DNA from: a virus
Taxonomy: Duplodnaviria > Heunggongvirae > Uroviricota > Caudoviricetes
DNA length: 27,845 nt
Direction: 5' to 3' (one strand)
Virus record (IMG/VR): IMGVR_UViG_2802429221_000019
Span: 1 to 27,845 of that record
Of this stretch, positions 2,098-27,279 are shown piece after piece (the stretch's first letter is position 1; every line of letters begins with the position of its first letter). A program made the position numbers and the translations under genes. The notes below the pieces were generated by a model, which did not search any database, was not told where the DNA came from, and worked only from the letters and a program-made list of their open reading frames with translations.

Positions 2098-3207
2098 TCA
2101 CTCTGTTTCCGCTATCCATTCCGGGATTTTTGCCTCAAGCTCAAGCTGCGTGGTAAAGCCGCTGTTATCAATGGTGTGCTCGGCTTTTGCAATAATCCAG
2201 TCCTGATTATCAATCTCGCTTTTAAATCCTGTTACCGTGCCATGCATTTCGGGGTAGAGTTCTGCTCGTCCACGTGCCAGCGTGATGGAGAATGATGCGG
2301 CTCCGCGTTGTAGTTGTTGCCACTTTGCCGCCGCTGCGCGTCTTGCTGCCTGCTCGTTCTGATAAGTCTTGCGTAACACAAACACATTGCCTTCCGCGCC
2401 TTCCATATAATCACCTTCACGGCTGCTGCTTTTCTCTTTTTTCGGTTTTGGCGGTTTGCGGCGTTTCACGCTGACTTTTTTCTTTTTCCCGTAATTAAGA
2501 TCAAGCCAGTAAGCGCGTACCCCCGTATACGCCTCGCGGTCAGCAATGCGGAACTGATGGCGATCGCCGCTGCTGCGGGTGATGGAGAACGATGGCAACG
2601 GCTGGCCCTGTGCGTTCACGCCACCGCCGGGCATGATGAATAACAGATTACCGCTTTTTACCGTGGTGATTGCGCCCAGCATTTCCGCCATGCGCGTAAG
2701 GAAGGACATGTCGCTTTCTTCAGTCTGGTCGGCGTGGTCGATTTCGATATCCATCAGCATTTCGCTGATTTGCGGTTTCAGACCGTACCGATGAGCGATG
2801 GCGGATACCACGCGCTCAACGGTCACATCATGCCAGGACACTTCACGTTTAACGTTAAATTCATCCCGAAAATCTGCGCTTCTGGCTGAAACAGTCAGCC
2901 TGTCCGGCGGTCCTTCGTGTGCGATTTCATCAACAATGTAAGACCCTTTTTCTGTCAGCGGTTCGCCTTTCCAGCCAATGAGAACCGTCAGGCACGCGCC
3001 CCGTGGTGGAAGCTGCAACTGACCATCCGCATCATCCAGCGTAATGGTGAGCTGGTCTGCCTCAAATCCCCGGTTGTCGGTCAGCGACAGGCTCATCAGG
3101 CGCTCTGCCACGCCGGACAGCGTTTTACCCTCCGCGAGAATATCAAAATCCGGCATTTTCACGGGGTCTGTGCTCTGACTGAGCAATTGCATGGTGGTAT
3201 CGGTCAT
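2098..3207 (-). CDS. D: tail protein D (late control D family)
   Basis: ORF-track frame 2098..3339; start chosen at ATG 3207 (MTDTTMQLL...) with SD GGGAGGGAG upstream. P2 gpD-like in size and sequence; contains a Lys-rich insertion KKKKVSVKRRKPPKPKKEK. Confidence 0.85.
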   Translation of the reverse strand: MTDTTMQLLSQSTDPVKMPDFDILAEGKTLSGVAERLMSLSLTDNRGFEADQLTITLDDADGQLQLPPRGACLTVLIGWKGEPLTEKGSYIVDEIAHEGPPDRLTVSARSADFRDEFNVKREVSWHDVTVERVVSAIAHRYGLKPQISEMLMDIEIDHADQTEESDMSFLTRMAEMLGAITTVKSGNLLFIMPGGGVNAQGQPLPSFSITRSSGDRHQFRIADREAYTGVRAYWLDLNYGKKKKVSVKRRKPPKPKKEKSSSREGDYMEGAEGNVFVLRKTYQNEQAARRAAAAKWQQLQRGAASFSITLARGRAELYPEMHGTVTGFKSEIDNQDWIIAKAEHTIDNSGFTTQLELEAKIPEWIAETE

Positions 3208-3364
3208 CTGCTCCCTCCCTGTGCGGCATGGTCGCATGTGTGTGCGGGCGGGGTTACTGCTTTTTGTTGTCGCCGGGCGGCAAGAACGGCGCAGGGGTGA
3301 GATTACGCGCGTGGTGGGTGATGATTGTTGCCGAATCATTTAACGGATACAAGGGGCTGAAGCT

Positions 3365-4549
3365 ATGAGTGAAACTCGTTTTCATGGTGCCCGTGTTACG
3401 GAAAATACCGACCTGGTAACAGCGATTAACGATGTTGATTCCAGCGTTATCGGTATCGTGGCAACGGCGGATGATGCGGACGCGAAGCTGTTCCCGCTGA
3501 ACAAGCCCACACTGCTGACCCGCGTCAATGACGTGCTGGGAAAATGCGGAACAACGGGGACGCTTTATCGTGTGCTTAAGGCCATCGCAGACCAGGTGAG
3601 CACAAAGGTGATCGTCGTTCGCGTGGCTGAACACAAAGAAGAAGACGGAAAGACGCAGGATCAACTGGTTATCGGTGGTTCTGAGGATGACGGCAGCTAT
3701 ACGGGGATGTATGCGCTGCTTGTTGCAGAGCAGGATGAAAGCATCGGATACCGTCCGCGTATTCTGGCCGCGCCGGAGCTGGACACGGAGGCGGTGACAA
3801 AATCCCTGTGCGTGATTGCGGGTAAACTGCGCGCGTTTGTGTATGCCTCATGTCACGGCTGTAACACGATGGCTGAAGCGATTACCTACCGCCAGAAATT
3901 CAACGAACGTGAAGTGATGCTCTTGTGGCCGGACTTCATCGCCTACAACACGAAAAGTGGCGAAAACGAAACGTTCCCCGCGCCTGCCTATGCGTGCGGC
4001 CTTCGTGCGTACATTGACCATGAGCAGGGCTGGCACAAATCGCTGTCCAACGTTCCGGTTAAAAATGTGCTGGGGATGTCCAGGCATGTGTTCTGGTCGT
4101 TACAGGCCGAAGACAGCGATGCCAACAGCCTCAACAACAAAGAAATCACGACCATTATTCGTCGCAACGGGTTCCGCTTCTGGGGCAACCGCACACCGGA
4201 AACGAACGCCTACATCTTTGAGGTGTATACCCGAACCGCACAGGTGCTGGCTGATTCAATTGCGGAAGCGCAGTTTGAAACCATCGACAGTCCACTGACG
4301 CCTGCGAACGTGAAGGATGTTATCAGTGCCATCAGGGCAAAACTGGATTCACTGGTTACTGCCGGGAAACTGATTGGCGCGGAGTGCTGGTATGACGTGG
4401 TGGATAACAGCACCACGGATTTACGTCAGGGGCGTGTGCGTATTCGCTACAAATATACGCCCGTTCCGCCACTGGAAGACATGGAGCTTTACCAGACGTT
4501 TACTGATGAATACTTTGAACCCGCATTTGCGGTGTTGGGAGGTGCCTGA
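3365..4549 (+). CDS. FI: contractile tail sheath protein
   Basis: 394 aa; conserved segments FPLNKP, GFRFWGNRT, YTPVPPLE as in P2 gpFI; SD AAGGGG upstream. Confidence 0.9.
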   Translation: MSETRFHGARVTENTDLVTAINDVDSSVIGIVATADDADAKLFPLNKPTLLTRVNDVLGKCGTTGTLYRVLKAIADQVSTKVIVVRVAEHKEEDGKTQDQLVIGGSEDDGSYTGMYALLVAEQDESIGYRPRILAAPELDTEAVTKSLCVIAGKLRAFVYASCHGCNTMAEAITYRQKFNEREVMLLWPDFIAYNTKSGENETFPAPAYACGLRAYIDHEQGWHKSLSNVPVKNVLGMSRHVFWSLQAEDSDANSLNNKEITTIIRRNGFRFWGNRTPETNAYIFEVYTRTAQVLADSIAEAQFETIDSPLTPANVKDVISAIRAKLDSLVTAGKLIGAECWYDVVDNSTTDLRQGRVRIRYKYTPVPPLEDMELYQTFTDEYFEPAFAVLGGA

Positions 4550-5061
4550 TGGCTGTGCCAAAACATCTTCGCTTTTTTACGCTGTTTGTGGATGGTGAAA
4601 ACGAAGTGGGTAAGGTGACGTCCGTCACTCTGCCTAAGCTGACGCGCAAAACCGACAGCTACCGGGGTGGTGGCATGATGGGGGCGGTAAGTATTGATCT
4701 CGGTCTGGACGACTCCGCGCTTGATGCGAGCTTTGTCATGGGGGGCGCAGTTCGTGAGCTGTTCCTTAAGTATGGCGGCACGATTGACGGCACGCTGCTG
4801 CGTTTTGCGGGTGAATACTACACCGATGCAGAAAGCGACCTGTATGAAGTCGAAATGCGCGGACGTGTGACGGAAATTGATATGGGGGAAGCCAAACAGG
4901 GCGAAGCCACATCACACACTTACGCCATTAAAAACACCTACTACAAGCTGAGTGTTAACGATCGCCCGTTGTGGGAGATTGACCTGCTGAACTTCATTTA
5001 CCGGAAGGACGGCAAGGACATTGCGCCCGATCGCATCCGTTCCGCGCTTGGGCTTGGCTGA
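4549..5061 (+). CDS. FII: tail tube protein
   Basis: 170 aa; ATG overlaps the FI stop (TGATG); size and position as for P2 gpFII. Confidence 0.88.
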   Translation: MAVPKHLRFFTLFVDGENEVGKVTSVTLPKLTRKTDSYRGGGMMGAVSIDLGLDDSALDASFVMGGAVRELFLKYGGTIDGTLLRFAGEYYTDAESDLYEVEMRGRVTEIDMGEAKQGEATSHTYAIKNTYYKLSVNDRPLWEIDLLNFIYRKDGKDIAPDRIRSALGLG

Positions 5062-5116
5062 TAAGTAATATGCAGGCGGCGCAGTGCGTCGCCTCTGACT
5101 GAAAAGGAGACCACTG

Positions 5117-5491
5117 ATGAAAAACATCGATACTGAAACCCAGAATAACACCGTGGCGGATGATGTGACGGCAGATGAGGATATGGCTGTCGAACGTGGT
5201 GTAAAACTTTCCCGGCCAATTGAGCGTGGCGGCGAAAAAATCACGTATGTGGAGATCACCGGGGCTATTGAGCAGGCTGGATCCCTGCGAGGTTTGTCGC
5301 TGTCTGATGTGCTGAATCTGAAAGCGGATACCATGTTCACGCTGTTGCCTCGCGTGACTTCGCCACGACTGGATGAAGTGATGATTAAAAAAATGTCGTC
5401 ACGCGATTTTATTCAGTTGTGCGCTGTGGCTGTAAATTTTATGAGCGAGCCAGACTCTGGCGCGAAGAGCGTGCAGGAGACGGCAGCGTAA
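5117..5491 (+). CDS. E: tail assembly chaperone E
   Basis: 124 aa between tail tube and tape-measure genes; SD AAGGAG 7 nt upstream; overlapping -1 frame ORF (E') continues into the T start region. Confidence 0.7.
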   Translation: MKNIDTETQNNTVADDVTADEDMAVERGVKLSRPIERGGEKITYVEITGAIEQAGSLRGLSLSDVLNLKADTMFTLLPRVTSPRLDEVMIKKMSSRDFIQLCAVAVNFMSEPDSGAKSVQETAA

Positions 5492-5655
5492 TCACCCTGG
5501 TGTGCTTTGAGCACATCGAAGATCTGGTGGCGGATATTGCCGCCATTTTTAACTGGTCGCCCGCCGAAATCTTCATGATGACGCCCGGCGAAGTGGTTAG
5601 CTGGCGTGAGCGGGCGGCACTTCGCAGCGGGAATGCAGACAATGAAGACTCTTGA
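5117..5655 (+). CDS. E+E' tail chaperone produced by programmed -1 frameshift (predicted)
   Basis: -1 frame is open from 5389 to 5655; slippery heptamer A AAT TTT at 5434-5440 in the E frame; analogous to P2 E/E+E' and lambda G/GT. Confidence 0.45.
5434..5440 (+). promoter_or_regulatory. candidate -1 ribosomal frameshift heptamer AAATTTT
   Basis: X XXY YYZ pattern in the zero frame of E inside the E/E' overlap; an alternative A7 run at 5387-5393 is less favourably placed. Confidence 0.4.
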
Positions 5656-8449
5656 TATCCGGGTCGCTTTCAGCGCCGTTGACAGGCTGACCCGGCCTGC
5701 CGAAAACGCCCGCCGCCTGATGGGGCAGTTTGGTGACTCCATCCAGCGAACGCAGGGGGCGATCAAAAATCTCGAGCGTCAGGCGCGTTCATTTGAGCGC
5801 GCCCGTGACGCTGTCAGTAAAGCGGATGCGGGCATCGTAAAAGCACGACGCCAGCTTAACGCCCTTAATCAGTTACAACGCACGGGTACAGTGCTCAGCG
5901 AAAAACAGCAAAAGCTGATGCAGCAGTTAAGCACCCGGCTTGAACGCCTGAATGAATCGCGCACACGGGAAATTCAGAAAATGCGGGAACTTGGCGGAGA
6001 GCTGAAACGCCACGGCATTTCCCTGACAGGCAGCGATAACACCATCCAGCAGGCCATCAGACGCACCGAACAGTACAACAACCAGCTTGAACGCGAACGG
6101 CAGGCGCTTGCGCGTGTAACGCGGGCGCGTGAGCGGTATTCGCGCGCGCAGGAAACAGCGGGAAAACTGAAAACAGGTGGTGCGCTGGCAATTGGTGCGG
6201 CAGCGGCGGGCGGCTATGCTGCCGGGCGTTTTTTGCAGCCTGCGATCGGGTTCGGGAAAGAGATGTCCCGCGTTCAGGCACTGACGCGAATCGACCAGAA
6301 CAGCCCGCAGTTTAAGGTGCTGCGTGAGCAGGCGTTAAAACTTGGCTCTGAAACGCAGTTCACCGCAGGCGATGCCGCCAGTGGACAGGCATTTCTTGCA
6401 ATGGCTGGCTTCACTCCGCAGGCCATTCAGGCTGCGCTTCCCGGCGTACTGAGCATGGCAACGGCTGGCGGTATGGATCTCGGCGAGACGGCAGATATTG
6501 GCTCAAATATCCTGACGCAGTTCGGCCTTTCTGCTGACCAGATGGACCGGGTCGGTGACACACTCACCGCAGCGTTTACCCGTACCAACACTGACCTTCG
6601 CGCACTGGGCGAAACCATGAAATATGCAGGTCCGGTGGCGGGTAAGCTGGGAATATCGCTGGAGCAGGCCGCAGCGATGGCGGGCGTACTGGCGAATATG
6701 GGCATCAGAGGGAGTGATGCCGGGACGGCAATGCGTGCCAGCCTGGCTCGTCTGGCATCACCGCCAAAGGCAGCGGCAGAAGCGCTGAAAGAGCTGGGCG
6801 TGTCCGTCTCGGATGCCGGGGGCAAAATGCGCCCGATGGAAGATCTGCTGGCTGACCTTTATAAAGCTACCCGCAAATACGGGGAAGTTGACCGGGTATC
6901 CTTCTTTAAGGACATCGCCGGGGAAGAGGCTTTCACATCGTTTATGGCACTCGTTGATGCGGCGGGTGACGGTTCCTTACCCAAACTGAGAAAAGAACTT
7001 GAGGGCGCACGCGGTGAGGCTGAACGCACGGCAAAGGTTATGGCCGACAACCTTGATGGCGACCTGAAAAATCTCGACAGCGCATGGGAAGGTCTTCGTA
7101 TTCGCATCAGTGATCTGGTTGACGGTTCGCTGCGTTCTGTCACGCAGTGGCTAACGCGGGTGGTCTCAAAAGTGACGGCACTGGCGCAGGCCCATCCTGT
7201 ACTGACGCGCCAGCTACTGATTGCAGGCGGTGCGCTGCTGGCAGTGACTGCAACCGTAGGCTCGTTGTCGCTTGCTCTTGGTGTGCTTGCTGGCCCACTG
7301 GCAAAACTGCGTCTTGGTTTTTCCCTCCTGACCGGATCAATGAATGCTGTCAGGCTCCTGCCTGCACTATGGGGAATGGTGACGGGTTCCGTTTCGTTAC
7401 TGGGGGGCGCTATCGGGGCGCTGTTCAGCCCGGTCGGATTGATTGCTGCTGCGTTTGTGGCTGCGGCAGTTCTCATCTGGAAATACTGGGAACCCATCAA
7501 GGCGTTTTATGCCGGGGTGTTCAGCGGGATTATGGAGCGGCTGGCCCCGTTACGCGAAACCTTTGAACGGTTTGGTCCTGTTTTTGACGCAATCGGAAGC
7601 GGGATCAGCCAGGTGTTTAACTGGTTTAAATCGCTGTTGTCACCGATGGAGTCCAGCAAGGAAACGCTGGATAAATGCACAAGTGCTGGCGAGGTATTCG
7701 GTAACGTTCTTGGCGGTGCGTTACAGCTTGTCCTGACGCCTGCAAAAATGCTGCTGGATACGTTGGCGTGGATACTTGAAAAACTCGGTGTTCTTCCGGA
7801 TGAAGCGGAAAGGGCGCGCAAGAAAATCGAAGACGCGCAGCGTGCGGCCATTCTTCAGGACAAGGTTGCTCTGTTTCAGGGAGACATTGCGAAAATCAAT
7901 CCGCCGAAGCCTGTGGAAAATGGCAATGGCACCGGAGGTGATAACCCCAAAGACAACAAACCGCTCACAGACAGCAATACCGGTACGCTACGCAGACTCA
8001 GCAAAATTGCTGATAACACAGGTAAGCTGGTTGATGAGACGAAAAAACGCATTGGCCCCGGCGATATTGTCTTTAAGAACCTGCCCCGCGCACTTGCCGT
8101 TCGTGGGGAGTGGCAGGAGCGGAAGATTGCGCAGGTCAGTAAGCCTGCCCCCGCAATTAATATCACACCTGTGGTTCCGGCTCCGCTGCCTCCGGCGCTG
8201 GTCCCTGTTGTTGCGGCCAGCTCCCGCCCGGTGGCAGAGGCCATACGATCGCCAGTGGCATCAGTTCCTGCAACTTCCCGTAACCGGGAGCCTGTTGCCT
8301 CCGGATTTGGCGGTGAAATTCATGTTCATCTGCATAACGTTGTTACGCAGAATCCCCGCGAACTGGCGAAACTGGTCGGTGAAATGGTCAGGGCAGAAAT
8401 GGAACGGCGCGCCCGTGCCGGGCGTGGCAGTTTTTACGATAAAGATTGA
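5606..8449 (+). CDS. T: tail tape measure protein
   Basis: 947-aa ORF (GTG at 5606; possible ATG starts at 5633 or 5642); coiled-coil N-terminus, Gly/Ala-rich hydrophobic core, position between chaperone and U. Confidence 0.85.
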   Translation: MSGRHFAAGMQTMKTLDIRVAFSAVDRLTRPAENARRLMGQFGDSIQRTQGAIKNLERQARSFERARDAVSKADAGIVKARRQLNALNQLQRTGTVLSEKQQKLMQQLSTRLERLNESRTREIQKMRELGGELKRHGISLTGSDNTIQQAIRRTEQYNNQLERERQALARVTRARERYSRAQETAGKLKTGGALAIGAAAAGGYAAGRFLQPAIGFGKEMSRVQALTRIDQNSPQFKVLREQALKLGSETQFTAGDAASGQAFLAMAGFTPQAIQAALPGVLSMATAGGMDLGETADIGSNILTQFGLSADQMDRVGDTLTAAFTRTNTDLRALGETMKYAGPVAGKLGISLEQAAAMAGVLANMGIRGSDAGTAMRASLARLASPPKAAAEALKELGVSVSDAGGKMRPMEDLLADLYKATRKYGEVDRVSFFKDIAGEEAFTSFMALVDAAGDGSLPKLRKELEGARGEAERTAKVMADNLDGDLKNLDSAWEGLRIRISDLVDGSLRSVTQWLTRVVSKVTALAQAHPVLTRQLLIAGGALLAVTATVGSLSLALGVLAGPLAKLRLGFSLLTGSMNAVRLLPALWGMVTGSVSLLGGAIGALFSPVGLIAAAFVAAAVLIWKYWEPIKAFYAGVFSGIMERLAPLRETFERFGPVFDAIGSGISQVFNWFKSLLSPMESSKETLDKCTSAGEVFGNVLGGALQLVLTPAKMLLDTLAWILEKLGVLPDEAERARKKIEDAQRAAILQDKVALFQGDIAKINPPKPVENGNGTGGDNPKDNKPLTDSNTGTLRRLSKIADNTGKLVDETKKRIGPGDIVFKNLPRALAVRGEWQERKIAQVSKPAPAINITPVVPAPLPPALVPVVAASSRPVAEAIRSPVASVPATSRNREPVASGFGGEIHVHLHNVVTQNPRELAKLVGEMVRAEMERRARAGRGSFYDKD

Positions 8450-8455
8450 GGAGTC

Positions 8456-8950
8456 ATGGCCATGATGATGATCTACGGCATGTTTGTTTTTGAGTTGCGC
8501 ACATTGCCGCATCAGCAGTTACAGCAAAATAAAAGCTGGCGACATGTGAAAAATGAACGCGTTAACCGTTCAGCAAGCTGGCAGTATATCGGGGCAGGCG
8601 ATGATCGTATTGTTCTTTCTGGTGTGCTTTATCCTGAAATTACAGGTGGCGAAGTGTCGCTGTCGCTGCTGACCACGCAGGCGTATACAGGACGCCCCTG
8701 GCCTCTTATTGATGGCGTCGGGCAGATTTACGGCATGTATGTCCTGACCGAAACGAATACGACCCGTTCCGAGTTTGATCGCTACGGTAAGGCGAAAAAG
8801 ATAGAATTTTCACTGACCCTTGAACGCTGTGATGAGGATTTGCGGGAGCGCCTGCAATCCTCATCGTTCAGCGATATGCTGTCCGGCTTCAAAGATAAGG
8901 TCACATCATCTCTTAACAGCGCGGCCAGCTCCGTTAAAGGGTTGTTTTGA
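8456..8950 (+). CDS. U: tail protein U
   Basis: 164 aa; SD GAGGAG upstream; P2 gpU-like (MxxxGxFVF...LPxQxLQQ..SWRH). Confidence 0.82.
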   Translation: MAMMMIYGMFVFELRTLPHQQLQQNKSWRHVKNERVNRSASWQYIGAGDDRIVLSGVLYPEITGGEVSLSLLTTQAYTGRPWPLIDGVGQIYGMYVLTETNTTRSEFDRYGKAKKIEFSLTLERCDEDLRERLQSSSFSDMLSGFKDKVTSSLNSAASSVKGLF

Positions 8951-8958
8951 CTTAATAC

Positions 8959-8988
8959 AAAACCGCTAATAAACATATTGGCGGTTTT
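8959..8988. terminator. bidirectional hairpin terminator between convergent U and G
   Basis: AAAACCGC ... GCGGTTTT inverted repeat with an inner AATA/TATT helix; A/T runs on both sides. Confidence 0.45.
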
Positions 8989-9009
8989 GTTCCTTAAATC
9001 ATCTTGCCT

Positions 9010-9585
9010 TTACACTAATTCTGGCCATTCGATATCAGGGGCATTTTCCGGCTGAACACGGTTAAGCAATACCCGGTATTTTTTCCATTTTGTCAGACTT
9101 AATTTTTCTTCTTCTGTAGCTATATCCAAATCGACAGCATCCTGCAGCGTGGCAATAATTTCACCTGCATATGCAATCAGCTCTTTCTTCTGAGACTCCG
9201 CCGCTCTGACAAGCGCATCACGTTCTGCATTCTCATCATTCACCCACGCATTTCCGTCCCATTTCTGATAATCCCCCTCCGGGGAAATAGCTGTCACGTC
9301 TGGAGGTAATACGCCAAGTTCAGAAATATAAATGGCTGCTCCTGTTTTCGTTTCGTAGACGGTCTTTCCGCGATGGTCTTCCATCAGTTCCCATTTCATT
9401 TCATCTGCATTGAAAACGGCTGCATAACCAGCAGGAATATCAGGTGGTGCAATATCTGTACTGTTTGCAGGCAGGCCAGTATACGGCGGAATATATGCAT
9501 CACTTTCGCCAATAAACTCATTGGTTCCATTAAGTAAATTGAAAACGCGGATAGTTTGTGCTTCTGCACTCATTCTGAAAGCCAT
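9010..9585 (-). CDS. G: tail fiber assembly protein
   Basis: 191 aa, immediately downstream of tail fiber gene with overlapping stop/start (TAATG); typical Tfa sequence. Confidence 0.8.
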
Positions 9586-12200
9586 TATGCAAGCCTCACA
9601 ATATAGTTAAATGCGATGTTTTTGACGGTGTTTTCGGTATTACCCGTAGCATTTACCGTGATGGTGTGCCCGTGCGCACCTAATGCTACAGTGTGTGCAT
9701 GGGCACCAATACCTACAGTGTGGTTATGCTGACCAATATCCACCGTATGGGCGTGCGCTCCGGCTGTGCTGGACACCTGATTGTTTCCTGAAGCCTGTAC
9801 ACGCTGTTTTCCACCGACAGAGTCGCCGCCATAAACACCACCGACAGTGTGCGTATGATTGCCCGTATTGTTCGTTGATTTTGTGCCATGGTTAAACGTA
9901 CTGACTGTCTTCGTGCCGTAATCAAATGAACTGGTCGTTTTCGTCCCTAAATCCGTATTTGACGCACTGGCGCTGTGAGTATGCGATTTAATCCCGTCCT
10001 GTTCCTGTGACAATACAGCACGTCCACTGGCGGGTTTGCCCTTGATTGTCCAGCCGCGCATATCTGGAATAACACCAGAAGGATAGGCAATAGCCAGTTT
10101 AGGATATGCTGCCTTATCAAACGTCTGCCCCTGCATAATTGCATAGCCTGCAGGTGGTGTATCTGATGGCCACGGCAGCGGAACACCTGGCGGAAACGCT
10201 TCAATATTTGCCGAGCCGTCAAATTTTACGCCGTTAATTGTCCTTGCCGTTTTCAGCTTTGTTGCTGTAGCCGCATTGCCGGACAGTTCGCCTGAAAGAC
10301 CACCGCTGAATGTCTGTTTCGCCGCCCATGTCTGAGCTTCGTCAATAATTGGCACACGTCTTGTCGTGATCGTGCGGCTTCCCGGATTTCCTGAAATACG
10401 CACCATAAAAAAGCGGTAGTTCGCTTTACTTACAGTGCTGCGCCATACATGCATTGAGCGCCCCGTACCGGAATCATCACTCGGACCAACTGCGATGTTT
10501 ATCAGGTTGCCATCAATGACGCCCCAGTCCATACCGTCGGGAATGTTGGTCATGTTATCAAGCCGAACGGTTATCAGACTGCCCGGCACAAAGTCGTAGG
10601 TCTGCCAGTCCAGGCTGGTGAGCTTTGCCACAGCACCGCCGATACCCAGATTCAGGGGAAGTGAATACGAGGTGTAGACTTCCCGCCATTCGCTCCACGA
10701 ACTGCCGGTATAGACGCGCTCAAACGTGCGACCTTTCGTTGTCGTTCCTGTCCCTGTAGTGGTATAGCGTTGCAATACGGCAACGTAATCAAAACGTCTG
10801 ATAACCTCTAACACCCCTATTAGTGTTGCACCAGATGGATCCAGCAATGGACCATTGGTCGCTTTACCCGTCACACTGTAAATACCAGGGTCGGTTAGAT
10901 CATTCAAATCACCGTCATAAAAGCTGCTTGCAGTCTGGCTGCCGATTCTTAGCCATGGTTCCCACTGCGGATTTGATGCATCCCAGTTTGCAGCAAGGCA
11001 GCGGACATACATGTTCCCACGGCGAGTGGTATAACGCTGGGTATAACTGAATCCACCGCCTTTCAGAACTTCAAGCACCCCCTGCGCGTAACTACCAGCT
11101 TCGGGATAGTGCAACGCAAGAGAAGCTAACGTACTGGAACTATTTCTCCATGTACCCAGATTATCCTCTCCGGCCAGAAAATCGAGATCCATGCTATCAT
11201 CCAGCGTTCTGGCCGTCCCCTGAACGTTACGCCATACGCTCCACGGACCATCTTTGCCGTTCCATTTAGCCGTCAGGTGGCGAATATAAGTATTTCCATT
11301 GCGAACGGTGTAACGCTGTGTTCCGTTAAAATTTCCTGCTGCAAATACTTCCAGGACACCAACGGCATTCTCTTCCGGGAAGTGTTTGGCTATCTGTGCA
11401 TTAGTCGAAGTGCCTTTTGACCATGTACCCAGATAAGCTTTAACGGGACCAAATGTATTCAGATCAGCATCAACCGGCATTTCGCCATTGTTTTTCATAA
11501 ACGTCAGGCTGGTAACGCCAACATTGTCCAGAAAAGCGCCCTTATCTGGAATATCGTCACCGTTCTGGTCTTTCTGCAGACGTTTCTCAGCATTGTCATA
11601 GGCTGCTTTTACTGCCTTTGGCGTTGCCGCCAGCTTTTCACTGGTGCTGTTTGTTGCACTGCTTAACTGGGTAAAACCTTTTTCTGTCAGCGTGGCGTCA
11701 GGATGGCGGCGGGACTGCTCATGCTCTGCGATTTTGTCATCGACGTAATCCTGCGTCGCCATCACTGTGCTGGCATCAATACTCAGCTCAACGGATGCCA
11801 CGTTACTGACAATAATGACCATGCGGCAGGTCTGCGCACGTCCGGAGCCTTCAGCCAGTTCAGGCTTATAGCTTTCTGCCATGTTGGCGACCGCAATCAG
11901 TGTTCCGGCATCGTCATACAGACCAAGTTCACGCATCCAGAAGCCGCCCACTTCTGGCGGAACAACCAGTTCAGCCACGATATAGTTTTTATTCTTATTA
12001 TCCACGCTGACTTTATTCAGGGCATGACGCCAGACCTCATGCACCAGCTTCGTCTGACCGGCATCCGGCACCGGCAATTTGCCATTACCGTCACCCACGG
12101 CCATTGCAGACAGGTTTACTTTTTTCCCGCCGGGAACGGTGGCGGCTGCCAGCTTCGCGGCTCCGGCAGTAGTGATAACGGTTTTAAATTTCGTGCTCAT
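9585..12200 (-). CDS. H: tail fiber protein with C-terminal His-x-His repeat receptor-binding region
   Basis: 871 aa; N-terminus [20 protein letters not shown] typical of P2 gpH; C-terminus carries repeated HTV/GAHAHTV motifs. Confidence 0.85.
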
Positions 12201-17703: not shown

Positions 17704-18504
17704 TTAACCGCGCTTCGCCTTCTGCGTCGCGGTGTTTTTTCGTGTTGCAGGCTTCCGCGTTGTCTTTTTACTTTTGCTGCTTTCGTCCTGCGCCTGCGGT
17801 GCGCTGGCGTCTTCTGGGTCGGCTGCGGAATCGGCTTTTTTCAGGGCGCGGGAAAGGGTTGCAATCTCGCGTTTCACACCTGCGTTCGGGTTCAGGTGCA
17901 TCGCTTCGCGCAGCAGCTTCAGTGACAGGGCCATGCTGTCCGCATCACTCAGGCCACGGCGGGCAAAGGCGCACGCCTTGCATAATTTGGCGCGCACTTC
18001 GTCCGGCATGTCCTGGTCGGTGACAATCTCCCGGAGGGTGTCCAGTGGTTCGATAAAGGCGGATAAATCCGCGTCGGCATCCGTTCCGGCCTGCGTCAGT
18101 ATTGGGTTGCAGATTTCCTCGGTCAGTACCGTGGCAGCAGTACGGCCAAAGTTATCCGGCATGATGAGGTTGTGACGAACCACATACGCACCAATACGCA
18201 ATGCCAGCGGAAGATCGCCGCAGTCAATCGCCCACACCATCAGCGTGGCAATCACTTCATCCTGCTGCCCGCCGTCAGCCTCCAGCGTTCCTTCAATCCA
18301 GCCGGAAAAGTCCGGCAACAACTCTTTTTTGATGGCGGCTCTGGCGCTTCTGGCCTGTACGCCCTTAAGCCGGGCCTGTGCCAGACGCAGACGATACAGC
18401 ACCTCTTCATGCGCGGTACGCGCGGCGTGATCCACGCCTTCATTCGCCCGGCCTGCGCGCTGCGCCATCACGTTCTGCCAGTGTTGCTGTGCAGGGGTAA
18501 TCAT
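17704..18504 (-). CDS. M: terminase small (endonuclease) subunit
   Basis: 266 aa, P2 gpM-like, basic C-terminal tail. Confidence 0.82.
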   Translation of the reverse strand: MITPAQQHWQNVMAQRAGRANEGVDHAARTAHEEVLYRLRLAQARLKGVQARSARAAIKKELLPDFSGWIEGTLEADGGQQDEVIATLMVWAIDCGDLPLALRIGAYVVRHNLIMPDNFGRTAATVLTEEICNPILTQAGTDADADLSAFIEPLDTLREIVTDQDMPDEVRAKLCKACAFARRGLSDADSMALSLKLLREAMHLNPNAGVKREIATLSRALKKADSAADPEDASAPQAQDESSKSKKTTRKPATRKNTATQKAKRG

Positions 18505-20616: not shown

Positions 20617-22368
20617 ATGATTCAGGACGCTTTTGTGCGCCAGCGTGCGCGACAACTTTACTGGCAGGGTTATCCGCCCGCTGAAATATCACGTCTGATG
20701 GGAATAAACCCGAACACGATTTATGCGTGGAAAAAACGCGACCAGTGGGATGAAACGCCACCCGTGCAGCGTGTCACGCAGTCCATCGATGCGCGCCTCA
20801 TCCAGCTTACTGAAAAACAGAATAAAACAGGCGGTGACTTTAAGGAAATAGACCTGCTGACCCGGCAGCTTAAAAAACTGCATGATGGCCAGCCGGATGC
20901 GACGGCCACAGGAAAGAAAGGCCGGGCGAAAAAGCTTAAAAATCATTTCACGCCGGAACAGATTGCCGCACTGCGGGAAAAAATCATCAGCAGGCTGGAG
21001 TGGCATCAGCGGGGCTGGTTTGACTCCCTGACCCTTTGCAGGGAAGCCGGGATACGTAACAGGATGATCCTGAAATCCCGACAGATTGGGGCGACCTGGT
21101 ATTTTGCACAGGAAGCACTGCTGATGGCGCTGCGTGACGATGTGGCGCAACCTTACCAGCGTAACCAGATTTTTTTGTCTGCGTCGCGTCGTCAGGCGTT
21201 CCAGTTTAAAAGCATTATTCAGAAGGCTGCATCTGAAGTTGATGTGGAGCTGAAAGGGGGCGATAAAATCATCCTCTCCAACGGCGCAGAACTGCATTTT
21301 CTCGGTACTTCTGCTGCGACGGCACAGTCCTACACAGGCAATTTTTATTTTGATGAATTTTTCTGGGTCAGTCGCTTTGCTGAACTGCGCAAGGTGGCTG
21401 GCGCTATGGCAACCCTCAGCGGGCTGCGACGCACCTACTTCTCCACGCCATCAACCGAAACGCACGAGGCATACGTCTACTGGAACGGCGACCGCTGGAA
21501 CGAGAAAAAGGCCGCGCATAAACGCCAGCGTTTTTCTGTGGACTGGAAAACGCTGCATAACGGGCTTATCTGCCCCGACCGGACGTGGCGGCAAATTGTC
21601 ACGCTGGAAGATGTGGTTAATCACGGCTGGAAACACACCGATATTGATGAAATTCGTGATGAAAACACCGAAGACGAGTTCCGCAATCTCTATATGTGTG
21701 AGTTTGTCCGCGAAGGGGAATCGGCATTTAACCTGAATATCCTGATTGGCTGCGGCGTTGACGGATACGACGACTGGAAAGACTGGAAACCTTTTGCTCC
21801 CCGCCCGATGGGGAATCGTCCGGTATGGATTGGGTATGACGCAAACGGCAGCAGTGGAAACGGCGACAGTGGCGCGGTGTCCGTGGTGGTTCCTCCGGCT
21901 GTTCCTGGTGGCCGTTTTCGAACGGTGGAGACGCGACGCGTTCAGGGGCTGGAGTTTGAAGAACAGGCCAGAGTCATTGAAGAGTTCACGTGTCGCTACA
22001 ACGTGGAACACATCGGCATTGATGTGACGGGCGGGAACGGGGAGGCTGTTTATCAGATAGTGAAACGGTTTTTCCCTGCCGCTATTCCGTACACCTTCAC
22101 GCTGTCATCAAAACGGTCGCTGGTACTGAAAATGCTGCAAATAATGCGTGCCGGGCGGTGGGAATACGATCGCGCCGAACGCGAGCTGGTCGCGGCCTTT
22201 AACGCCGTGCGTAAGGTGAAAACACCGGGCGGCTTTATCACTTACGAAACGGACCGCGCGAGGGGGATCAGCCACGGCGACCTTGCGTGGGCAACCATGC
22301 TTGCTGTCATTAACGAACCAATTGGCGGCGAAGGAGAAAACGAGCGTTTCACGGTTATGGAGTTCTGA
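20617..22368 (+). CDS. P: terminase large (ATPase) subunit
   Basis: 583 aa; SD GGGGGAG upstream; divergent from O as in P2. Confidence 0.9.
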   Translation: MIQDAFVRQRARQLYWQGYPPAEISRLMGINPNTIYAWKKRDQWDETPPVQRVTQSIDARLIQLTEKQNKTGGDFKEIDLLTRQLKKLHDGQPDATATGKKGRAKKLKNHFTPEQIAALREKIISRLEWHQRGWFDSLTLCREAGIRNRMILKSRQIGATWYFAQEALLMALRDDVAQPYQRNQIFLSASRRQAFQFKSIIQKAASEVDVELKGGDKIILSNGAELHFLGTSAATAQSYTGNFYFDEFFWVSRFAELRKVAGAMATLSGLRRTYFSTPSTETHEAYVYWNGDRWNEKKAAHKRQRFSVDWKTLHNGLICPDRTWRQIVTLEDVVNHGWKHTDIDEIRDENTEDEFRNLYMCEFVREGESAFNLNILIGCGVDGYDDWKDWKPFAPRPMGNRPVWIGYDANGSSGNGDSGAVSVVVPPAVPGGRFRTVETRRVQGLEFEEQARVIEEFTCRYNVEHIGIDVTGGNGEAVYQIVKRFFPAAIPYTFTLSSKRSLVLKMLQIMRAGRWEYDRAERELVAAFNAVRKVKTPGGFITYETDRARGISHGDLAWATMLAVINEPIGGEGENERFTVMEF

Positions 22369-23414
22369 TGAGCAGAAAAAATAAAAAAGTGCGCATGAGT
22401 TCACGCATTGATCTCGCTGATGCGCTCAGGAAAGAATCGTCGCTCAGTGCATTCACATTTGATGGTCCTTACCGCCTGACCGGGCATGACCTGCTGGACA
22501 ATATGTACTGTGCTGATAACGGGCGATGGTATGAAACCCCGGTGGACTGGTACGGTCTGGCAAGAGCTGCCCGGCAAACGTCCTGGCATCAGTCTGCGCT
22601 TTACTTTAAGCGTAATGTATTGCTCGGCTGCTATATTCCGCATCCGCTGCTTTCCCGGCAGGATTTCTCGGCGCTGGCGCTGGACTGGTTTGTGTTCGGT
22701 AACGCATTCCTTGAGCTTCGAAGCAATATGCTCGGCGAACCGCTTAAATTACGGCACGCCCTGGCGAAATACATGCGACGCGGAAGCGATCTTGAATCAT
22801 GGTGGTATGTGCAGGATGGCAAGGACGCGTTTCAGTTTCGCCCTGGCAAAGTGTGCCACCTGATGAACCCGGATATTAACCAGGAAATCTACGGCATGCC
22901 GGAATATCTTGGCGCATTACTCTCGGCCAGCCTGTCTCATTCGGCGGACATGTTCAGAAAACTGTACTACGACAATGGATCCCACGCCGGGTGCATCATC
23001 TACATCGGTGCAGCGCAGGTAAACCGCGAAAGCATGGACTCCCTGAAGGAAACGCTACAGGGTGCGCGTGGTGGTGGTGCATTTAAAAACGTGCTCATTC
23101 ACGCGCCAAACGGGGGCAAAGAAGGTGTGCAAATTTTGCCGTTCCAGCAGATCACCGCAAAGGATGAGTTCATGAATGTTAAGGCGGCATCCCGTGATGA
23201 TGTGCTGGCTGCGCACCGCGTTCCGCCGCAACTGATGGGGGCGATGCCGGGCGAAAAAAGTGCGTTTGGTGATGTGGAGAAGGCAGCGCGGGTTTACGCA
23301 ATTAACGAGCTGATGCCCGTCATGGAGGCCATGAAGCACATCAATGACTGGCTTGGCGAAGAGGTGATCCGTTTTAATTCTTATGCTCTTCTTGATGAAA
23401 AAACAGCCCCGTGA
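22368..23414 (+). CDS. Q: portal protein
   Basis: 348 aa; ATG overlaps P stop (TGATG); P2 gpQ-like size and position. Confidence 0.9.
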   Translation: MSRKNKKVRMSSRIDLADALRKESSLSAFTFDGPYRLTGHDLLDNMYCADNGRWYETPVDWYGLARAARQTSWHQSALYFKRNVLLGCYIPHPLLSRQDFSALALDWFVFGNAFLELRSNMLGEPLKLRHALAKYMRRGSDLESWWYVQDGKDAFQFRPGKVCHLMNPDINQEIYGMPEYLGALLSASLSHSADMFRKLYYDNGSHAGCIIYIGAAQVNRESMDSLKETLQGARGGGAFKNVLIHAPNGGKEGVQILPFQQITAKDEFMNVKAASRDDVLAAHRVPPQLMGAMPGEKSAFGDVEKAARVYAINELMPVMEAMKHINDWLGEEVIRFNSYALLDEKTAP

Positions 23415-23430
23415 TGGGGCTGTCCTTTTT
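23403..23430. terminator. bidirectional intrinsic terminator between Q and the convergent 174-aa gene
   Basis: stem ACAGCCCC / GGGGCTGT with 5-nt loop, overlapping the Q stop, followed by CCTTTTT; the complementary strand has a T-run on the other side. Confidence 0.65.
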
Positions 23431-23953
23431 ACCAGAGTTGAACCATTTTCTGTGTGCCGTCAGGCTTGAGATTATCAATTTCAGAGAGAACGTAATATTG
23501 AATGGCTTCACAGACGGTGGTGTATGGTGAATTACCTTCTTTAAGTGGCACGATATTATTATTAACGCGAACCTGTATTTCATCGTTATACATTGCGATC
23601 GAAAGAGGAGTATGCACGAAGGCGACTTCGCCAGGTGTGTCGTCAACCACTGTCTCAATGCTGAAAATCAGTTTTCGCTCATCATTGCCGCCCCTTGCTT
23701 TGGGGGTAGCGGCAGGAATCTGAGATAAAGGCATTCTGCGAAACCCTTCAGCCGTTTCCAGTCCGCATGAAACGTAATGCTGGCGATTACCGTCGCTATC
23801 AGTCCATGTCTGTGATGGCAGCTCCAGAGAGATTTCATAAGCATCAACAATTCCCTGGGCAATGCGTACAAGCGGGGTCAGGTCTTCATTGCGGCGAAAA
23901 CTCTCCTTTACCTGATCTCGTTTTTCTCGTAACTGCTTGTAATTAATGACCAT
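23429..23953 (-). CDS. hypothetical protein, 174 aa, no recognised domain
   Basis: ORF-track frame 23429..23992; start chosen at ATG 23953 (MVINYKQLREKR...) with SD GGAGG 7 nt upstream; ends at the bidirectional terminator; GC content looks lower than the phage core. Confidence 0.5.
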   Translation of the reverse strand: MVINYKQLREKRDQVKESFRRNEDLTPLVRIAQGIVDAYEISLELPSQTWTDSDGNRQHYVSCGLETAEGFRRMPLSQIPAATPKARGGNDERKLIFSIETVVDDTPGEVAFVHTPLSIAMYNDEIQVRVNNNIVPLKEGNSPYTTVCEAIQYYVLSEIDNLKPDGTQKMVQLW

Positions 23954-24358
23954 AAGACAGCCTCCATTGATTTCTTTGCTCGTATTTTGCACTTATGAAG
24001 TGTGGTCGGCAAGGTGCCGCATCACTGACGCGCTTCGCTTGTCTGCTGCTTCGCCGGGGCATAAAAAATTTATGCCCCGACTCTCCAGCTCCCGTATCAA
24101 TCAGATAATTTCACGACGTCTTCCAACTTATCGCCATCATCGACGGCCAGACTCTTACGCAATCCCATCGAGCTGATAGCATGTTCTCGCCGCCTCAGTG
24201 CGATTTTGACGGCCTTACCTTTCACCCCATCAAATCAGAACCCCTTACGTATTTTTCACGCTCAGCGTGAGCGATACAGCCATTCTGTTGTGTCGCTGCG
24301 ACATCGTTCAGGGAATGCTATTTACCCCCTGAAACGCGGGCTGTTCCCCCGTCACCTG

Positions 24359-24382
24359 CGCGCAGAAAAAGCGCGTTTTTTT
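24359..24382 (+). terminator. terminator-like hairpin with U-tract (plus-strand sense) in noncoding region
   Basis: CGCGC - AGAAAAA - GCGCG followed by T7. Confidence 0.35.
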
Positions 24383-24450
24383 GTGCACGCACGGATCCTT
24401 GACGGATCCAGCCGCCATGCGGGCCGGAAGGGCAAAAAGTCGTTCAAAAA

Positions 24451-24480
24451 AATTGTGCAAATTTGTGCACTATTGTGCAA
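24451..24480. repeat. three tandem 10-bp repeats (ATTGTGCAAA / TTTGTGCACT / ATTGTGCAAA)
   Basis: TTGTGCA core at 24453, 24463 and 24473, exactly one helical turn apart, at the boundary of the AT-rich island. Confidence 0.6.
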
Positions 24481-24718
24481 ACCGAACGGAGTGCTTATTT
24501 ATAGAAAAATTGAGCCTATGTATACGACGTTGCTTATAAATACATCCCTGACTGTTATGTGAAAATATGCAAAGAAAATTACATGCTATGGAGATGAGAG
24601 TTATAACGACCTTTTCTACTTATTTGTAAAAGAGGTCGTTATGTAAAAGTTAAATTATTTTTTACTCTTGATATGTGTAAAAAATATAGCTTTGATGTTT
24701 ATATCCTATTAGAATACA

Positions 24719-26416
24719 TTATTTATCCTCTTTAATGATTTTGTTATAGTCAAAATCCCAAATTTTTCTGTCAATGCCGTTTGTTGGTGTAACCCGGTAG
24801 AATAAGGATCGTAATCCATTGTAAAAATACTGGAGAGATTTCTGATTTTCTGGTTTGTCTAACCAGTTTCTTGTAATCATTCTAAAGAATTCAATATGCT
24901 GATTGAATATTTTCTTATTTAATTTTCTTCTTAAACCGGATGTAGACTCATGGTTGTCTTTTCTTTTCTGAATTTCAGTTTCAATTGATTGTAATTGAGG
25001 ACGTATCTTGAGTAAGTATAACTCTTTCGAAAAACCATTGTTAATTATATCCTGATTTTCCCAGAAGGAAGAGTCGTCGGTATTATAAAGGTGCTCACAA
25101 TGCTCAAATATCAATTGTTCTGGAGCTTTTTCACCCGGCAGTGATATAATTCCTCTCTGATCCTCAGGGCTGTGATCTCCATCAAGAATACAAATTGATT
25201 TTAACGAGGTTTCCTTAAGATGAGAATCATTAAAAATAGTTTTTAAATTGTCTGCACCAATGAAACAATCAATTAAGTGAAATGAATTACTAACTATAGC
25301 AAAATTTGGATATTTGCTTATCCAATAACCAAGTATTTCATTAAATAAAAAGCGAGCTTCTTCATCTTCCGTGAAAACTGGTATCTTGTTCCTTGTGTAT
25401 ATCTCATCCTTTGTTTGTGTTTTCAGATACATTGTTATTTTTAATATATCAGGATTATCCAAAAGCAGAGCCTTTGTAATATTGTTAATTAGATAGGCAA
25501 CATGATATTTTTTATGAAAAGCATATTCTAGCAATGTCAGACTGTGCGTTGTGAAAAATACTTGAATCTTATAATCTTTTGCGTATTGATAAATTTTATC
25601 TAATAATCTTATCTGTAAAGAAGGATGTAAAGTGGCATCAAATTCATCTATTAACAGAATGCTTTCTTTTTGATCAGTGGATTGAATAAGTGATTCAAAA
25701 TAATACCTAAGGCTAACTAATGCCTTGATTATAACGAATATATTGTCTTCCCCGGATGATATGGTATTAGAATCAATTGCTGGGTTATCGGTATCAAATA
25801 ATGGGCCAGCTTTAAAATCTCCGATATTGTTTGATTCTATATTTATAATATTAATGCCCAAAAGTTCATTATATATTTTCGATATATAACCAACATACTC
25901 TTCTGGTAGGTTTAACGGAATTTTTGTAAGGGCGTCGTCTTTAGTTTCACCAATTGGGAATAGTCGCGATAATCCAAGATATAAAACTGGTTTAGCTGGA
26001 AGTGATTGTTTTTCTTTTCCGCGTGGGTATACTGGTTTGATAGCATACCGTTGCGCTTCGTCTGGATTTTTTGAGTTGTGCTTTCTGAAGTCTAGTGTGC
26101 TATGATCCAAATAGTTAATAGAAAATAACACACCTTTTGTTCCCTCTGCCGGATCGGTGTAATTTTTTGATTCCCTAACAATTGCTTCCATTTTGGGGTT
26201 GGCTATTTTGTTTATAGATTTTATAACTCTAACACAATTACTATTTGAATAATTTTGTGATCGAGATGGTGGCATTTGGAAACCATTGCTAATTAAATGA
26301 AGCAATGTTGTCTTACATGTCCCATTGGTTCCTGATATTATATTGATGTCTTCATTGAATGAGAAGTCAATATCTATCAGTTTCTTAAATTTTTTAAAAC
26401 TAATTTCTTTAATCAT
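24719..26416 (-). CDS. OLD-family-like ABC ATPase with C-terminal Toprim-like nuclease domain
   Basis: 565 aa; Walker A GTNGTCKTT (aa 29-37), signature-like ISSGE (aa ~219-223), Walker B ILLIDE (aa 253-258), H-loop FFTTHS (aa ~287-292); C-terminal PVFTEDEE (Glu ~350) and ILDGDHS (DxD 412-414) fit a Toprim fold; SD AAGGA 8 nt upstream; very AT-rich. Confidence 0.7.
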   Translation of the reverse strand: MIKEISFKKFKKLIDIDFSFNEDINIISGTNGTCKTTLLHLISNGFQMPPSRSQNYSNSNCVRVIKSINKIANPKMEAIVRESKNYTDPAEGTKGVLFSINYLDHSTLDFRKHNSKNPDEAQRYAIKPVYPRGKEKQSLPAKPVLYLGLSRLFPIGETKDDALTKIPLNLPEEYVGYISKIYNELLGINIINIESNNIGDFKAGPLFDTDNPAIDSNTISSGEDNIFVIIKALVSLRYYFESLIQSTDQKESILLIDEFDATLHPSLQIRLLDKIYQYAKDYKIQVFFTTHSLTLLEYAFHKKYHVAYLINNITKALLLDNPDILKITMYLKTQTKDEIYTRNKIPVFTEDEEARFLFNEILGYWISKYPNFAIVSNSFHLIDCFIGADNLKTIFNDSHLKETSLKSICILDGDHSPEDQRGIISLPGEKAPEQLIFEHCEHLYNTDDSSFWENQDIINNGFSKELYLLKIRPQLQSIETEIQKRKDNHESTSGLRRKLNKKIFNQHIEFFRMITRNWLDKPENQKSLQYFYNGLRSLFYRVTPTNGIDRKIWDFDYNKIIKEDK

Positions 26417-26433
26417 CTATATCATCCTTAAAT

Positions 26434-27279
26434 TTAAATGTCAGGGATTTTTATACCATGATTATAAATGATAATTTCTAGACCTTTTTTCTTATCTTGT
26501 GCAGTATAATTAAGCGTATAATCAGTCATATTGAATTCATGATATATGCTTTTTATTTCAGGCACATTGTCATAAGACACAACCCAAGGTAGTTGAATTT
26601 CCCGTAGTGTATTAGCGATTTTTACATGATCATCATGTTTATAAAAATTTCTATATAACTCTGCTCCTTTAACATAATAAGGTGGATCAAGATATATTAG
26701 ACTATTTTGGGGTAGCAATGCTTTTTGGTGTAGCAGAAAATCTACAGCATCAAAATTCGATACGTAAATTTTCTCCTTATATGCCCCAATTAGTTCAATC
26801 CTTTTAATTAACTCTTTTTTGTTGAATCGTGCATCTAACTTCCATGGTCCTTTTTGTTCTTTCCCTCCAATAACGCCAGCCTTAAGTATTCCTGAACGGT
26901 TTGTTCTATTTAAAAAGAAAGTAGATAATGCGACTTCAAGCATACTATATTTATCATTGTTTAGGAGTATCTCCTTTTGAGTATGCCAATTTTCAATAGT
27001 CACAGGAACTTCATCAATCATTTCACATAACAGATCGTTATGATTAACCACTGCAAACCAAAAAGAATAAAGGGCAGGATCAATATCATTTATGAAGATA
27101 TTTTCAACAAGACCGTTAAGGAGCAAACCTAATGCAACACCGGCTCCACCTGCATAAGGTTCAGCATAACATCCACCAATGAGATCATTGTTGCGGAGTA
27201 TTTGTTCAATATGTGGCAAGAATTTTGCCTTACCTCCCGGATAACGAAGAGGGGTTCTAAAATGAGAAGGCTTTGTCAT
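26434..27279 (-). CDS. Dam-family (D12 class) N6-adenine DNA methyltransferase
   Basis: 281 aa; motifs YPGGK (aa 13-17), EPYAGGAGV (aa 40-48, SAM-binding FxGxG type), DPPY (aa 198-201); 17-nt gap to the downstream OLD-like gene. Confidence 0.85.
   Translation of the reverse strand: MTKPSHFRTPLRYPGGKAKFLPHIEQILRNNDLIGGCYAEPYAGGAGVALGLLLNGLVENIFINDIDPALYSFWFAVVNHNDLLCEMIDEVPVTIENWHTQKEILLNNDKYSMLEVALSTFFLNRTNRSGILKAGVIGGKEQKGPWKLDARFNKKELIKRIELIGAYKEKIYVSNFDAVDFLLHQKALLPQNSLIYLDPPYYVKGAELYRNFYKHDDHVKIANTLREIQLPWVVSYDNVPEIKSIYHEFNMTDYTLNYTAQDKKKGLEIIIYNHGIKIPDI

Follow-up and report, generated by a model that had tools for sequence, protein, structure and literature searches.

A predicted cos site with phased TGCAC repeats beside the portal gene of a P88-like prophage

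The conserved block behind the portal gene

The DNA analysed here (hereafter the window) comprises 27,845 nucleotides, positions 1 to 27,845 of IMG/VR virus record IMGVR_UViG_2802429221_000019, and is a P88-type member of the P2-like prophages (Xuanwuvirus, Peduoviridae). This one element encodes homologues of P2 gpM, gpP and gpQ, with identities of 36%, 44% and 47%, respectively, and such divergence of the packaging proteins fits a cohesive-end (cos) site that has kept the P2 layout while changing its sequence. The order of genes is P, Q, an open reading frame (ORF) of 174 aa, a block at 24017-24482 and AT-rich variable cargo. The block is 92-94% identical in P88 and its relatives and is present in 1182 of the 5426 complete E. 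coli genomes. In P2, cos is annotated between old and Q, the same map slot as the site described here; in P88, gene A follows the cargo, and Rousset et al. (PMC9122126) described a defence hotspot adjacent to cos, between gpA and gpQ, in P2-like phages. An earlier reading of the window from its letters alone (the original prediction) had proposed the interval 23993-24440 as a candidate cos/packaging or regulatory region, in part because P2 carries cos between old and Q, and the synteny agrees with that map position. We consider it highly probable that the segment 24314-24479 is the cos site of this P88-like prophage. The genes and segments on which this assignment bears are as follows.

17704-18504, terminase small subunit, gpM homologue
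20617-22368, plus strand, terminase large subunit P, gpP homologue
22368-23414, plus strand, portal protein Q
24017-24091, palindrome module with 11-bp arms at 24055-24079, in the tQ slot behind the portal gene
24092-24313, clade-specific noncoding spacer with two 6-bp dyads, between the palindrome module and cos
24314-24479, minus strand, predicted cos module, the segment common to a satellite-like element, phage phiT5282H and prophages of many Enterobacterales genera

The limits of the region had to be redrawn. Noncoding DNA starts at 23954, upstream of the interval first proposed, and the conserved block reaches 24479, 39 bp past its end, so that the most diagnostic element, three copies of TTGTGCA at 24453-24479, lies just beyond it. 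Within the 448-bp interval, the cos assignment holds for 24314-24440 but not for the remainder. The lack of a credible ORF was borne out, as PGAP places no gene in the block in most of the 1182 E. coli genomes concerned. Small ORFs are annotated as genes in P88; the 42-aa ORF of that record (24097-24225, minus strand) has 15, 13 and 10 polymorphisms at the three codon positions, a distribution with no codon-position bias, and the small ORFs were rejected as genes. The description of the region as GC-rich does not hold, since its GC content of 53.8% equals that of the structural genes (53.9%) and merely contrasts with the AT-rich cargo (32.1%).

Layout, conservation and sharing of the predicted cos module

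On its minus strand, the module can be read as a series of parts that are listed here with their coordinates in the window.

24334-24388, minus strand, counterpart of the 55-bp cos core of the P2 family (GTGCAC with A7, hairpin, cosN and GCG)
24338-24356, minus strand, predicted cosN or cohesive end 5'-GGTGACGGGGGAACAGCCC-3' (block A), with nicks placed to within a few nt
24358-24382, plus strand, GC hairpin GCGCGC-AGAAAAA-GCGCG(T) with T7 (-13.4 kcal/mol), terminator-like on this strand, in the slot held by a hairpin and TTTTAATGCA beside cosN in P2, P4 and 186
24383-24388, fourth GTGCAC, proximal to cosN, at -31 from the predicted cos start
24391-24409, plus strand, direct repeat of two copies of ACGGATCC
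24421-24439, plus strand, conserved spacer block GGGCnGnAAGGGCAnAAA (block C), between the proximal and distal TGCAC sites
24444-24479, plus strand, TC and A7, then three copies of TTGTGCA at exact 10-bp spacing (24453, 24463 and 24473)

For comparison with mapped ends, the circular junctions of P2, P4 and 186 were rebuilt from their linear records. These junctions read three phased TGCAT sites, about 60 nt, TGCAT with TAAAA, a GC hairpin, the 19-nt cohesive end and GCGCGC; the minus strand of the window reads three phased TGCAC sites, about 65 nt, GTGCAC with A7, a GC hairpin and GGTGACGGGGGAACAGCCC. The agreement extends to the distances of the repeats from the cos start.

P2, P4 and 186, TGCAT offsets from the mapped cos start: -123/-124, -111, -101 and -29
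Window, phiT5282H, the E. coli C25 element and the prophage of E. coli JNEC-KY174, TGCAC offsets from the predicted cos start: -123, -113, -103 and -31

The window has a phased triplet of TGCAY sites at about 100-125 nt from its predicted cos end, a feature whose description is our own and not a published criterion. Alignment with the cos regions of P2 and 186 had been suggested as a check of the packaging proposal, and it yields the same architecture at nearly the same TGCAY offsets. The layout of the 55-bp core (Ziermann & Calendar 1990, as cited in PMC5694545 and PMC9594776), that is, TGCAY with an A-run, a short GC hairpin, cosN and a GC-rich flank, is likewise found at 24334-24388. The P2 cohesive-end sequence, reported as not found in the original prediction, appears to be present in a diverged form on the minus strand at 24338-24356. 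By analogy with the triple TGCAT of P2, P4 and 186, the TTGTGCA array is proposed to be a terminase-binding (cosB-like) array. Seven copies of TTGTGCA occur in the window, four of them within 99 bp at cos (Poisson P about 1e-8). No match to the integration host factor (IHF) consensus was found inside the cos module and spacer, and counts of that consensus across the window are at chance level.

Conservation was followed at increasing distance from P88. In an alignment of 115 distinct IMG/VR flanks, seeded on a 22-mer within 24340-24361, the near-invariant blocks outside the seed are TTTTTTGTGCA (24377-24387), GGGCnGnAAGGG (24421-24433) and TCAAAAAAATTGTGCAAATTTGTGCACTATTGTGCA (24444-24479), and the first GATCC of the ACGGATCC repeat (24394-24398) is kept in at least 90% of these flanks. 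Homology stops abruptly after 24479, which marks the edge of the cargo hotspot. The stem of the hairpin at 24358-24382 is kept in the P88 class only, often in weakened form, and is absent from the C25 element and phiT5282H; the T-run and the next GTGCA are invariant or nearly so across the aligned relatives. The second ACGGATCC copy is limited to the P88 class, and both copies are missing from the satellite-like element. Beyond the P88 clade, the conserved part is 24314-24479 only, with 74% identity in Enterobacter phage phiT5282H (Novemvirus) and 81% identity in the E. coli C25 element.

When genomes representing species were scanned with the distal repeats as the sole seed, the same layout turned up in Thiolinea and in about 20 genera of Enterobacterales. 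The slot of block A is filled by GGCGAGGCGGGGGAGCAAGC in Yokenella, Klebsiella, Brenneria and Pectobacterium, and the first 12 nt of this sequence, GGCGAGGCGGGG, are also the first 12 nt of P2 cos. The predicted cosN of the window aligns with GGCGAGGCGGGGGAGCAAGC of Yokenella, Klebsiella and Brenneria at 14 of 18 positions with a gap of 2 nt, which is the main difference of the window form. These bridging variants appear to tie the block in the window to the classical cosN; the literal consensus GG(C/T)G(A/T)GGCGGGG... is not matched by GGTGACGGGGGAACAGCCC, and the link runs through the intermediates.

Several further loci came up in these searches. A prophage of E. coli JNEC-KY174 (L009, 4500-4660) has a third cosN variant, GGTGGCGTGGGACAGGGCG, in the same TGCAC layout, together with an extra proximal TGCAC at -38, and yet other sequences occupy the cosN slot in Sodalis, Arsenophonus and Thiolinea. 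Contigs assigned to Firmicutes, from Vagococcus sp. WN89Y (L155) and the Bacillota metagenome-assembled genome QAKE01000006.1 (L169/L181), carry a near-identical enterobacterial cos module and probably represent contamination or mis-binning. Many Pedobacter genomes contain the 18-mer ATTGTGCAAATTTGTGCA, which is much less frequent in other taxa outside the enterobacteria. Those of the Pedobacter/Sphingobacteriaceae loci that were screened (from a set of L134, L135, L139 and about 20 others) lack the cos layout, and the Pedobacter loci are an unrelated conserved element.

The satellite-like element of E. coli C25 lies in NZ_CP127314.1 at 4529911-4542076 (L008), occupies about 2500-12160 of that stretch and is integrated beside hpt. 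Its genes encode MazEF, a P2-family major capsid protein, an Ogr/Delta zinc finger protein, an integrase, an 891-aa Toprim primase and an Icd-like protein, and it also carries a TGCAC-type cos. The capsid protein (423 aa) is 35% identical to phage gpN and has a 130-aa N-terminal extension. No portal or terminase genes were found in the element, nor were homologues of psu, sid or P4 alpha detected there, and a 236-aa protein considered as a gpO-like scaffold was rejected for lack of similarity. A search of all complete E. coli genomes with 1.7 kb of the element showed the entire stretch in about 55 of them, and hundreds of P88-like prophages matched it solely at L008 6001-6167, which corresponds to 24314-24479 of the window. 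In P2 and P4, cos is the only DNA common to helper and satellite (PMC9122126), and the cos-only sharing seen in these genome comparisons reproduces that pattern. With a P2-type capsid gene of its own, such a satellite may be worth studying.

Compared at the level of sequence, the module is homologous in position, strand, motif order and spacing to cos sites defined by experiment, is conserved family-wide and is shared with a satellite-like element. The packaging half of the original prediction is thereby supported, by synteny, by the architecture of the P2, P4 and 186 sites and by the sole homology with the satellite-like element. A cos site in the expected map position and with the classical layout is, for that very reason, ordinary.

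Palindromes, cargo genes and other neighbouring features

The features that surround the predicted cos module are the following.

23403-23423, plus strand, hairpin with T-run that overlaps the Q stop codon (9-bp stem with 6 GC, CCTTTTT tail; RNA fold -16.9 kcal/mol)
23429-23953, minus strand, variable cargo ORF of 174 aa between Q and the conserved block
23954-24016, upstream region of the inserted 174-aa cargo gene, outside the conserved block
24257-24269 and 24291-24303, 6-bp dyads

The palindrome, the dyads, the direct repeat and the hairpin with T7 had all been listed in the original prediction, and each was found at its coordinates. The 23-bp palindrome GGGGCATAAA-AAA-TTTATGCCCC at 24056-24078 is present, but its full extent is that of 11-bp arms at 24055-24079. 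The longest arm of a perfect inverted repeat measures 11, as compared with a maximum of 10 in 300 shuffles that preserve dinucleotides, and eight inverted repeats with arms of at least 6 were observed as opposed to 1.0 +/- 1.2 in the shuffled sequences, none of the 300 reaching eight. The region is clearly richer in palindromes than expected by chance. Taken by itself, the 8-nt direct repeat lacks significance, as 7% of shuffles hold one. Real as they are, the palindrome, both dyads and the second copy in the direct repeat are not conserved outside the P88 clade; in the present alignments the palindrome, the two 6-bp dyads and the paired ACGGATCC are clade-specific and fall outside the shared cos core.

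In P88, the palindrome module starts a few nt past the portal stop codon, with the palindrome about 25 nt downstream, where P2 has the terminator tQ. Positions 24030-24069 are almost invariant in 67 P88-class sequences, and the palindrome has a fold energy of -22 to -28 kcal/mol. No T-run follows 24055-24079 on either strand, and a palindrome without a U-tract is not a canonical terminator. A 68-bp palindrome module (24024-24091) is 98.5% identical in a different P2-like lineage, the prophage of JNEC-KY174 (L009, 4001-4068), where it follows the portal gene at a distance of about 260 bp. In one IMG/VR relative (L032, 3380-3425), the right flank is replaced and the palindrome has perfect 20-bp arms, CTGCTTCGCCGGGGCATAAA-AAA-TTTATGCCCCGGCGAAGCAG; this enlargement suggests hairpin-templated conversion. 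The spacer at 24092-24313 is conserved within the P88 class only, with 20-50% polymorphic sites per 20 nt, and has no coding signature.

To judge from its form and position, the hairpin at 23403-23423 is likely a bidirectional terminator between the convergent genes Q (plus strand) and the 174-aa ORF (minus strand); it belongs to the context and lies outside cos. The most likely start of the 174-aa ORF is the ATG at 23953, with GGAGG upstream, and a protein of 174 aa is also annotated in phage PhiR44_2. The ORF is found in PhiR44_2 and some E. coli prophages and is missing in P88 and P88_4B11, and homology to P88 begins at 24017. Searches of Pfam and PADLOC matched it to no family. Its distribution suggests that cos has another small slot for cargo on the side facing Q.

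Directly past cos, a two-gene cargo occupies 24719-27279 on the minus strand, with a GC content of 32% (32.1%). One gene encodes a 281-aa D12-class adenine methyltransferase that matches PADLOC PD-Lambda-5_B (E=8.7e-122), and the other a 565-aa ATPase of the AAA_15/AAA_21 (OLD/Gabija/Septu-like) type. On these matches, the cargo is probably a PD-Lambda-5-type defence system in the cos-adjacent hotspot of P2-like phages, and the junction 24479|24480 gives the exact left edge of that hotspot.

Alternative explanations, proposed mechanism and known systems

The hairpin at 24358-24382 has the attributes of a rho-independent terminator, a GC-rich stem-loop directly followed by a U-tract, and folds at -13.4 kcal/mol. 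Moreover, in P88, which lacks the cargo insert, its counterpart is the first canonical plus-strand terminator after Q, at which late transcripts may stop. The block might accordingly be a small RNA, as the original prediction had entertained, or the long 3' untranslated region of the P-Q late transcript, ending at this hairpin and with the palindromes as RNA structure. We regard this as improbable. There is no plus-strand promoter-like site in 23300-24800, and no Rfam family matches, the best hit (UptR, E=0.93) being at chance level and located at the Q terminator. Covariation is negligible: RNAalifold on 25 diverse P88-class sequences gave a covariation term of -2.05 kcal/mol, with compensatory change in 3 of 86 pairs. 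Furthermore, the stem is lost in the satellite-like element and in phiT5282H while the flanking DNA motifs are kept, and in the window Q has its own canonical terminator at 23403-23423. A second role of the hairpin and T7 as a late-operon terminator, within a cos site, is possible from its structure.

It is very improbable that the TTGTGCA repeats and dyads are instead operators or promoter elements regulating the cargo genes or the 174-aa ORF. The old-tin transcripts of P2 do start about 30 bp from the TGCAT array, a weak minus-strand hairpin with T7 within the repeats could terminate a cargo operon, and a promoter-like pair TTGCCG-17-CAAAAT lies upstream of the 174-aa ORF. However, the repeats are invariant whatever cargo follows and in whichever orientation, they recur in the satellite-like element beside different neighbours, and their phase to cosN matches that of P2, P4 and 186. 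The cargo genes of the window are transcribed towards the repeats, and the candidate promoter of the 174-aa ORF falls in 23960-24016, which belongs to the inserted cassette and not to the conserved block. The sharp homology breaks at 24479 and 24017, where variable cassettes begin, and the 98.5% identity of the palindrome module in an unrelated lineage could be expected of a mere conserved flank that anchors homologous recombination for cargo swapping and has no sequence-specific function. Such a flank would not hold nucleotide-level motif spacing across genera while the intervening sequence diverges, nor would it be the sole DNA common to a satellite-like element, and any anchoring of cargo exchange is more readily explained as following from an indispensable cos (PMC9122126). 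We therefore consider a purely passive role of the block extremely improbable.

Several observations weigh against the assignment of cos to 24314-24479, or against the exact placement of its ends. The virion ends of every phage with this cos type are predicted, not mapped. Without gaps, the predicted cosN agrees with P2 cos at about 10/19 positions, and the G-rich conserved block at 24421-24439 scores similarly against P2 cos in the opposite orientation; this block C was rejected as cosN on the grounds of its orientation, the TGCAY offsets and the bridging variants at block A. The 2-nt gap relative to the P2-type cosN allows more than one overhang length. In addition, a single linear public record, that of P88_4B11, opens inside the block, at 24434|24435, away from the predicted cosN. 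Nucleotide 1 of that genome was set relative to reference genomes after SPAdes assembly and not from termini (PMC6969025), so its start was rejected as a physical end and neither supports nor refutes the predicted cosN. For Serratia phage BZS1 (PMC7556043), the end derived with PhageTerm is a 12-nt sequence, GCATTGCGCGCC. In 186 this sequence straddles the 3' edge of cos, comprising the last 4 nt of the 19-nt cos and TGCGCGCC; the BZS1 end may reflect a shifted cut or a PhageTerm offset, and if BZS1 is P2-like, nick positions in the P2 family may shift. Terminase binding to TGCAY repeats was not found documented in the literature consulted, in which a review of small terminases matched P22 and not P2 and a 2026 survey of P2-like viruses made no mention of cos. 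Searches of the available literature returned no paper with the string of the cos core, on the cos of P88 or on P88_4B11. IMG/VR contig ends were rejected as evidence for the nicks because those close to the site are scattered, most of the loci are predicted prophages and the end of a locus cannot be taken as the end of a contig.

P2-type phages package their DNA from monomeric circles, not from concatemers. For a cos site at 24314-24479, we propose that terminase would bind the three TGCAC sites on one face of the helix and the fourth GTGCAC beside the A-tract, by analogy with the R sites of lambda cosB. The small subunit, the gpM homologue, is the putative binder of the TGCAC repeats, and the A/T-tracts and the conserved spacer block would help to bend the DNA; block C as a bend or accessory-factor site is a guess. 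Bound terminase would position the nuclease over the G-rich GGTGACGGGGGAACAGCCC (24338-24356), around which the large subunit would make staggered nicks, giving the cohesive ends of the virion DNA. The 5' overhang would be 19 nt by analogy with P2, or possibly 17 nt.

Prophages of the P88-like, TGCAC type are present in about 22% of complete E. coli genomes. We tentatively suggest that the TGCAC-type cos, with at least three cosN variants, could define a separate packaging-specificity group of Enterobacterales P2-like phages, possibly with satellites of its own, of which the C25-type element may be one. On this reading, the cos type would divide helpers and satellites of Peduoviridae into separate pairing groups, classical P4 (TGCAT) would not be packaged by P88-type helpers, and the repeat sequence, TGCAT or TGCAC, may set helper-satellite specificity. 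The comparisons also suggest that phased TGCAY repeats belong to P2-family cos sites in general, a component that has so far been under-described. The value of the result is practical and leaves the understanding of cos packaging unchanged: it offers a concrete predicted cos for a very common type of E. coli prophage (P88/Xuanwuvirus) and its relatives, whose genomes could be opened correctly, and a candidate minimal packaging signal of about 165 bp for P88-based cosmid or transduction systems.

Among known systems, lambda cos (cosN and cosB, with R3-I1-R2-R1 for gpNu1 and IHF) has the same proposed logic of a nicking site with one proximal and several distal sites for the small terminase, separated by a spacer, all to one side of it; it has no sequence relationship to the window, whose spacer contains no IHF consensus. 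The P2-family Ralstonia phage phiRSA1 has a mapped cos end, GGTGAGGCGGGGTCCAAC (as cited in PMC5694545). In a comparison of the end sequence alone, this end (GGTGAGGCGGGG...), which begins GGTGA...GGGG, agrees with the predicted cosN at 9 of the first 12 nt. The same source describes extra genes between cos and the Q homologue in relatives of phiRSA1 such as phiRSY1; phiRSA1 differs from the window in the phylum branch of its host and in its flanks.

The differences from P2, P4 and 186 are several. Their ends are mapped and those of the window predicted; the repeat is TGCAC here and TGCAT there; GCGCGC lies on the opposite side of cosN; and the window has the extra conserved spacer block at 24421-24439. 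The cosN GGTGACGGGGGAACAGCCC differs from that of P2, with about 10/19 ungapped identity and a 2-nt gap relative to the GGCGAGGCGGGGG forms, and the distance from the predicted cosN (24338) to the palindrome (24079) is about 260 bp, as opposed to about 140 bp between cos and tQ in P2. The site resembles cos of P2, P4 and 186, with its 19-nt 5' cohesive end GGCGAGGCGGGGAAAGCAC, in several ways: it has the same position beside the portal gene, and its predicted G-rich cosN is on the same strand, antisense to Q; it has a triple phased TGCAY at about -123 to -101 and a fourth TGCAY with an A-run at about -30; a GC hairpin abutting cosN and an adjacent GCGCGC element; and, likewise, it is shared between phage and satellite-like element and adjoins a cargo hotspot.

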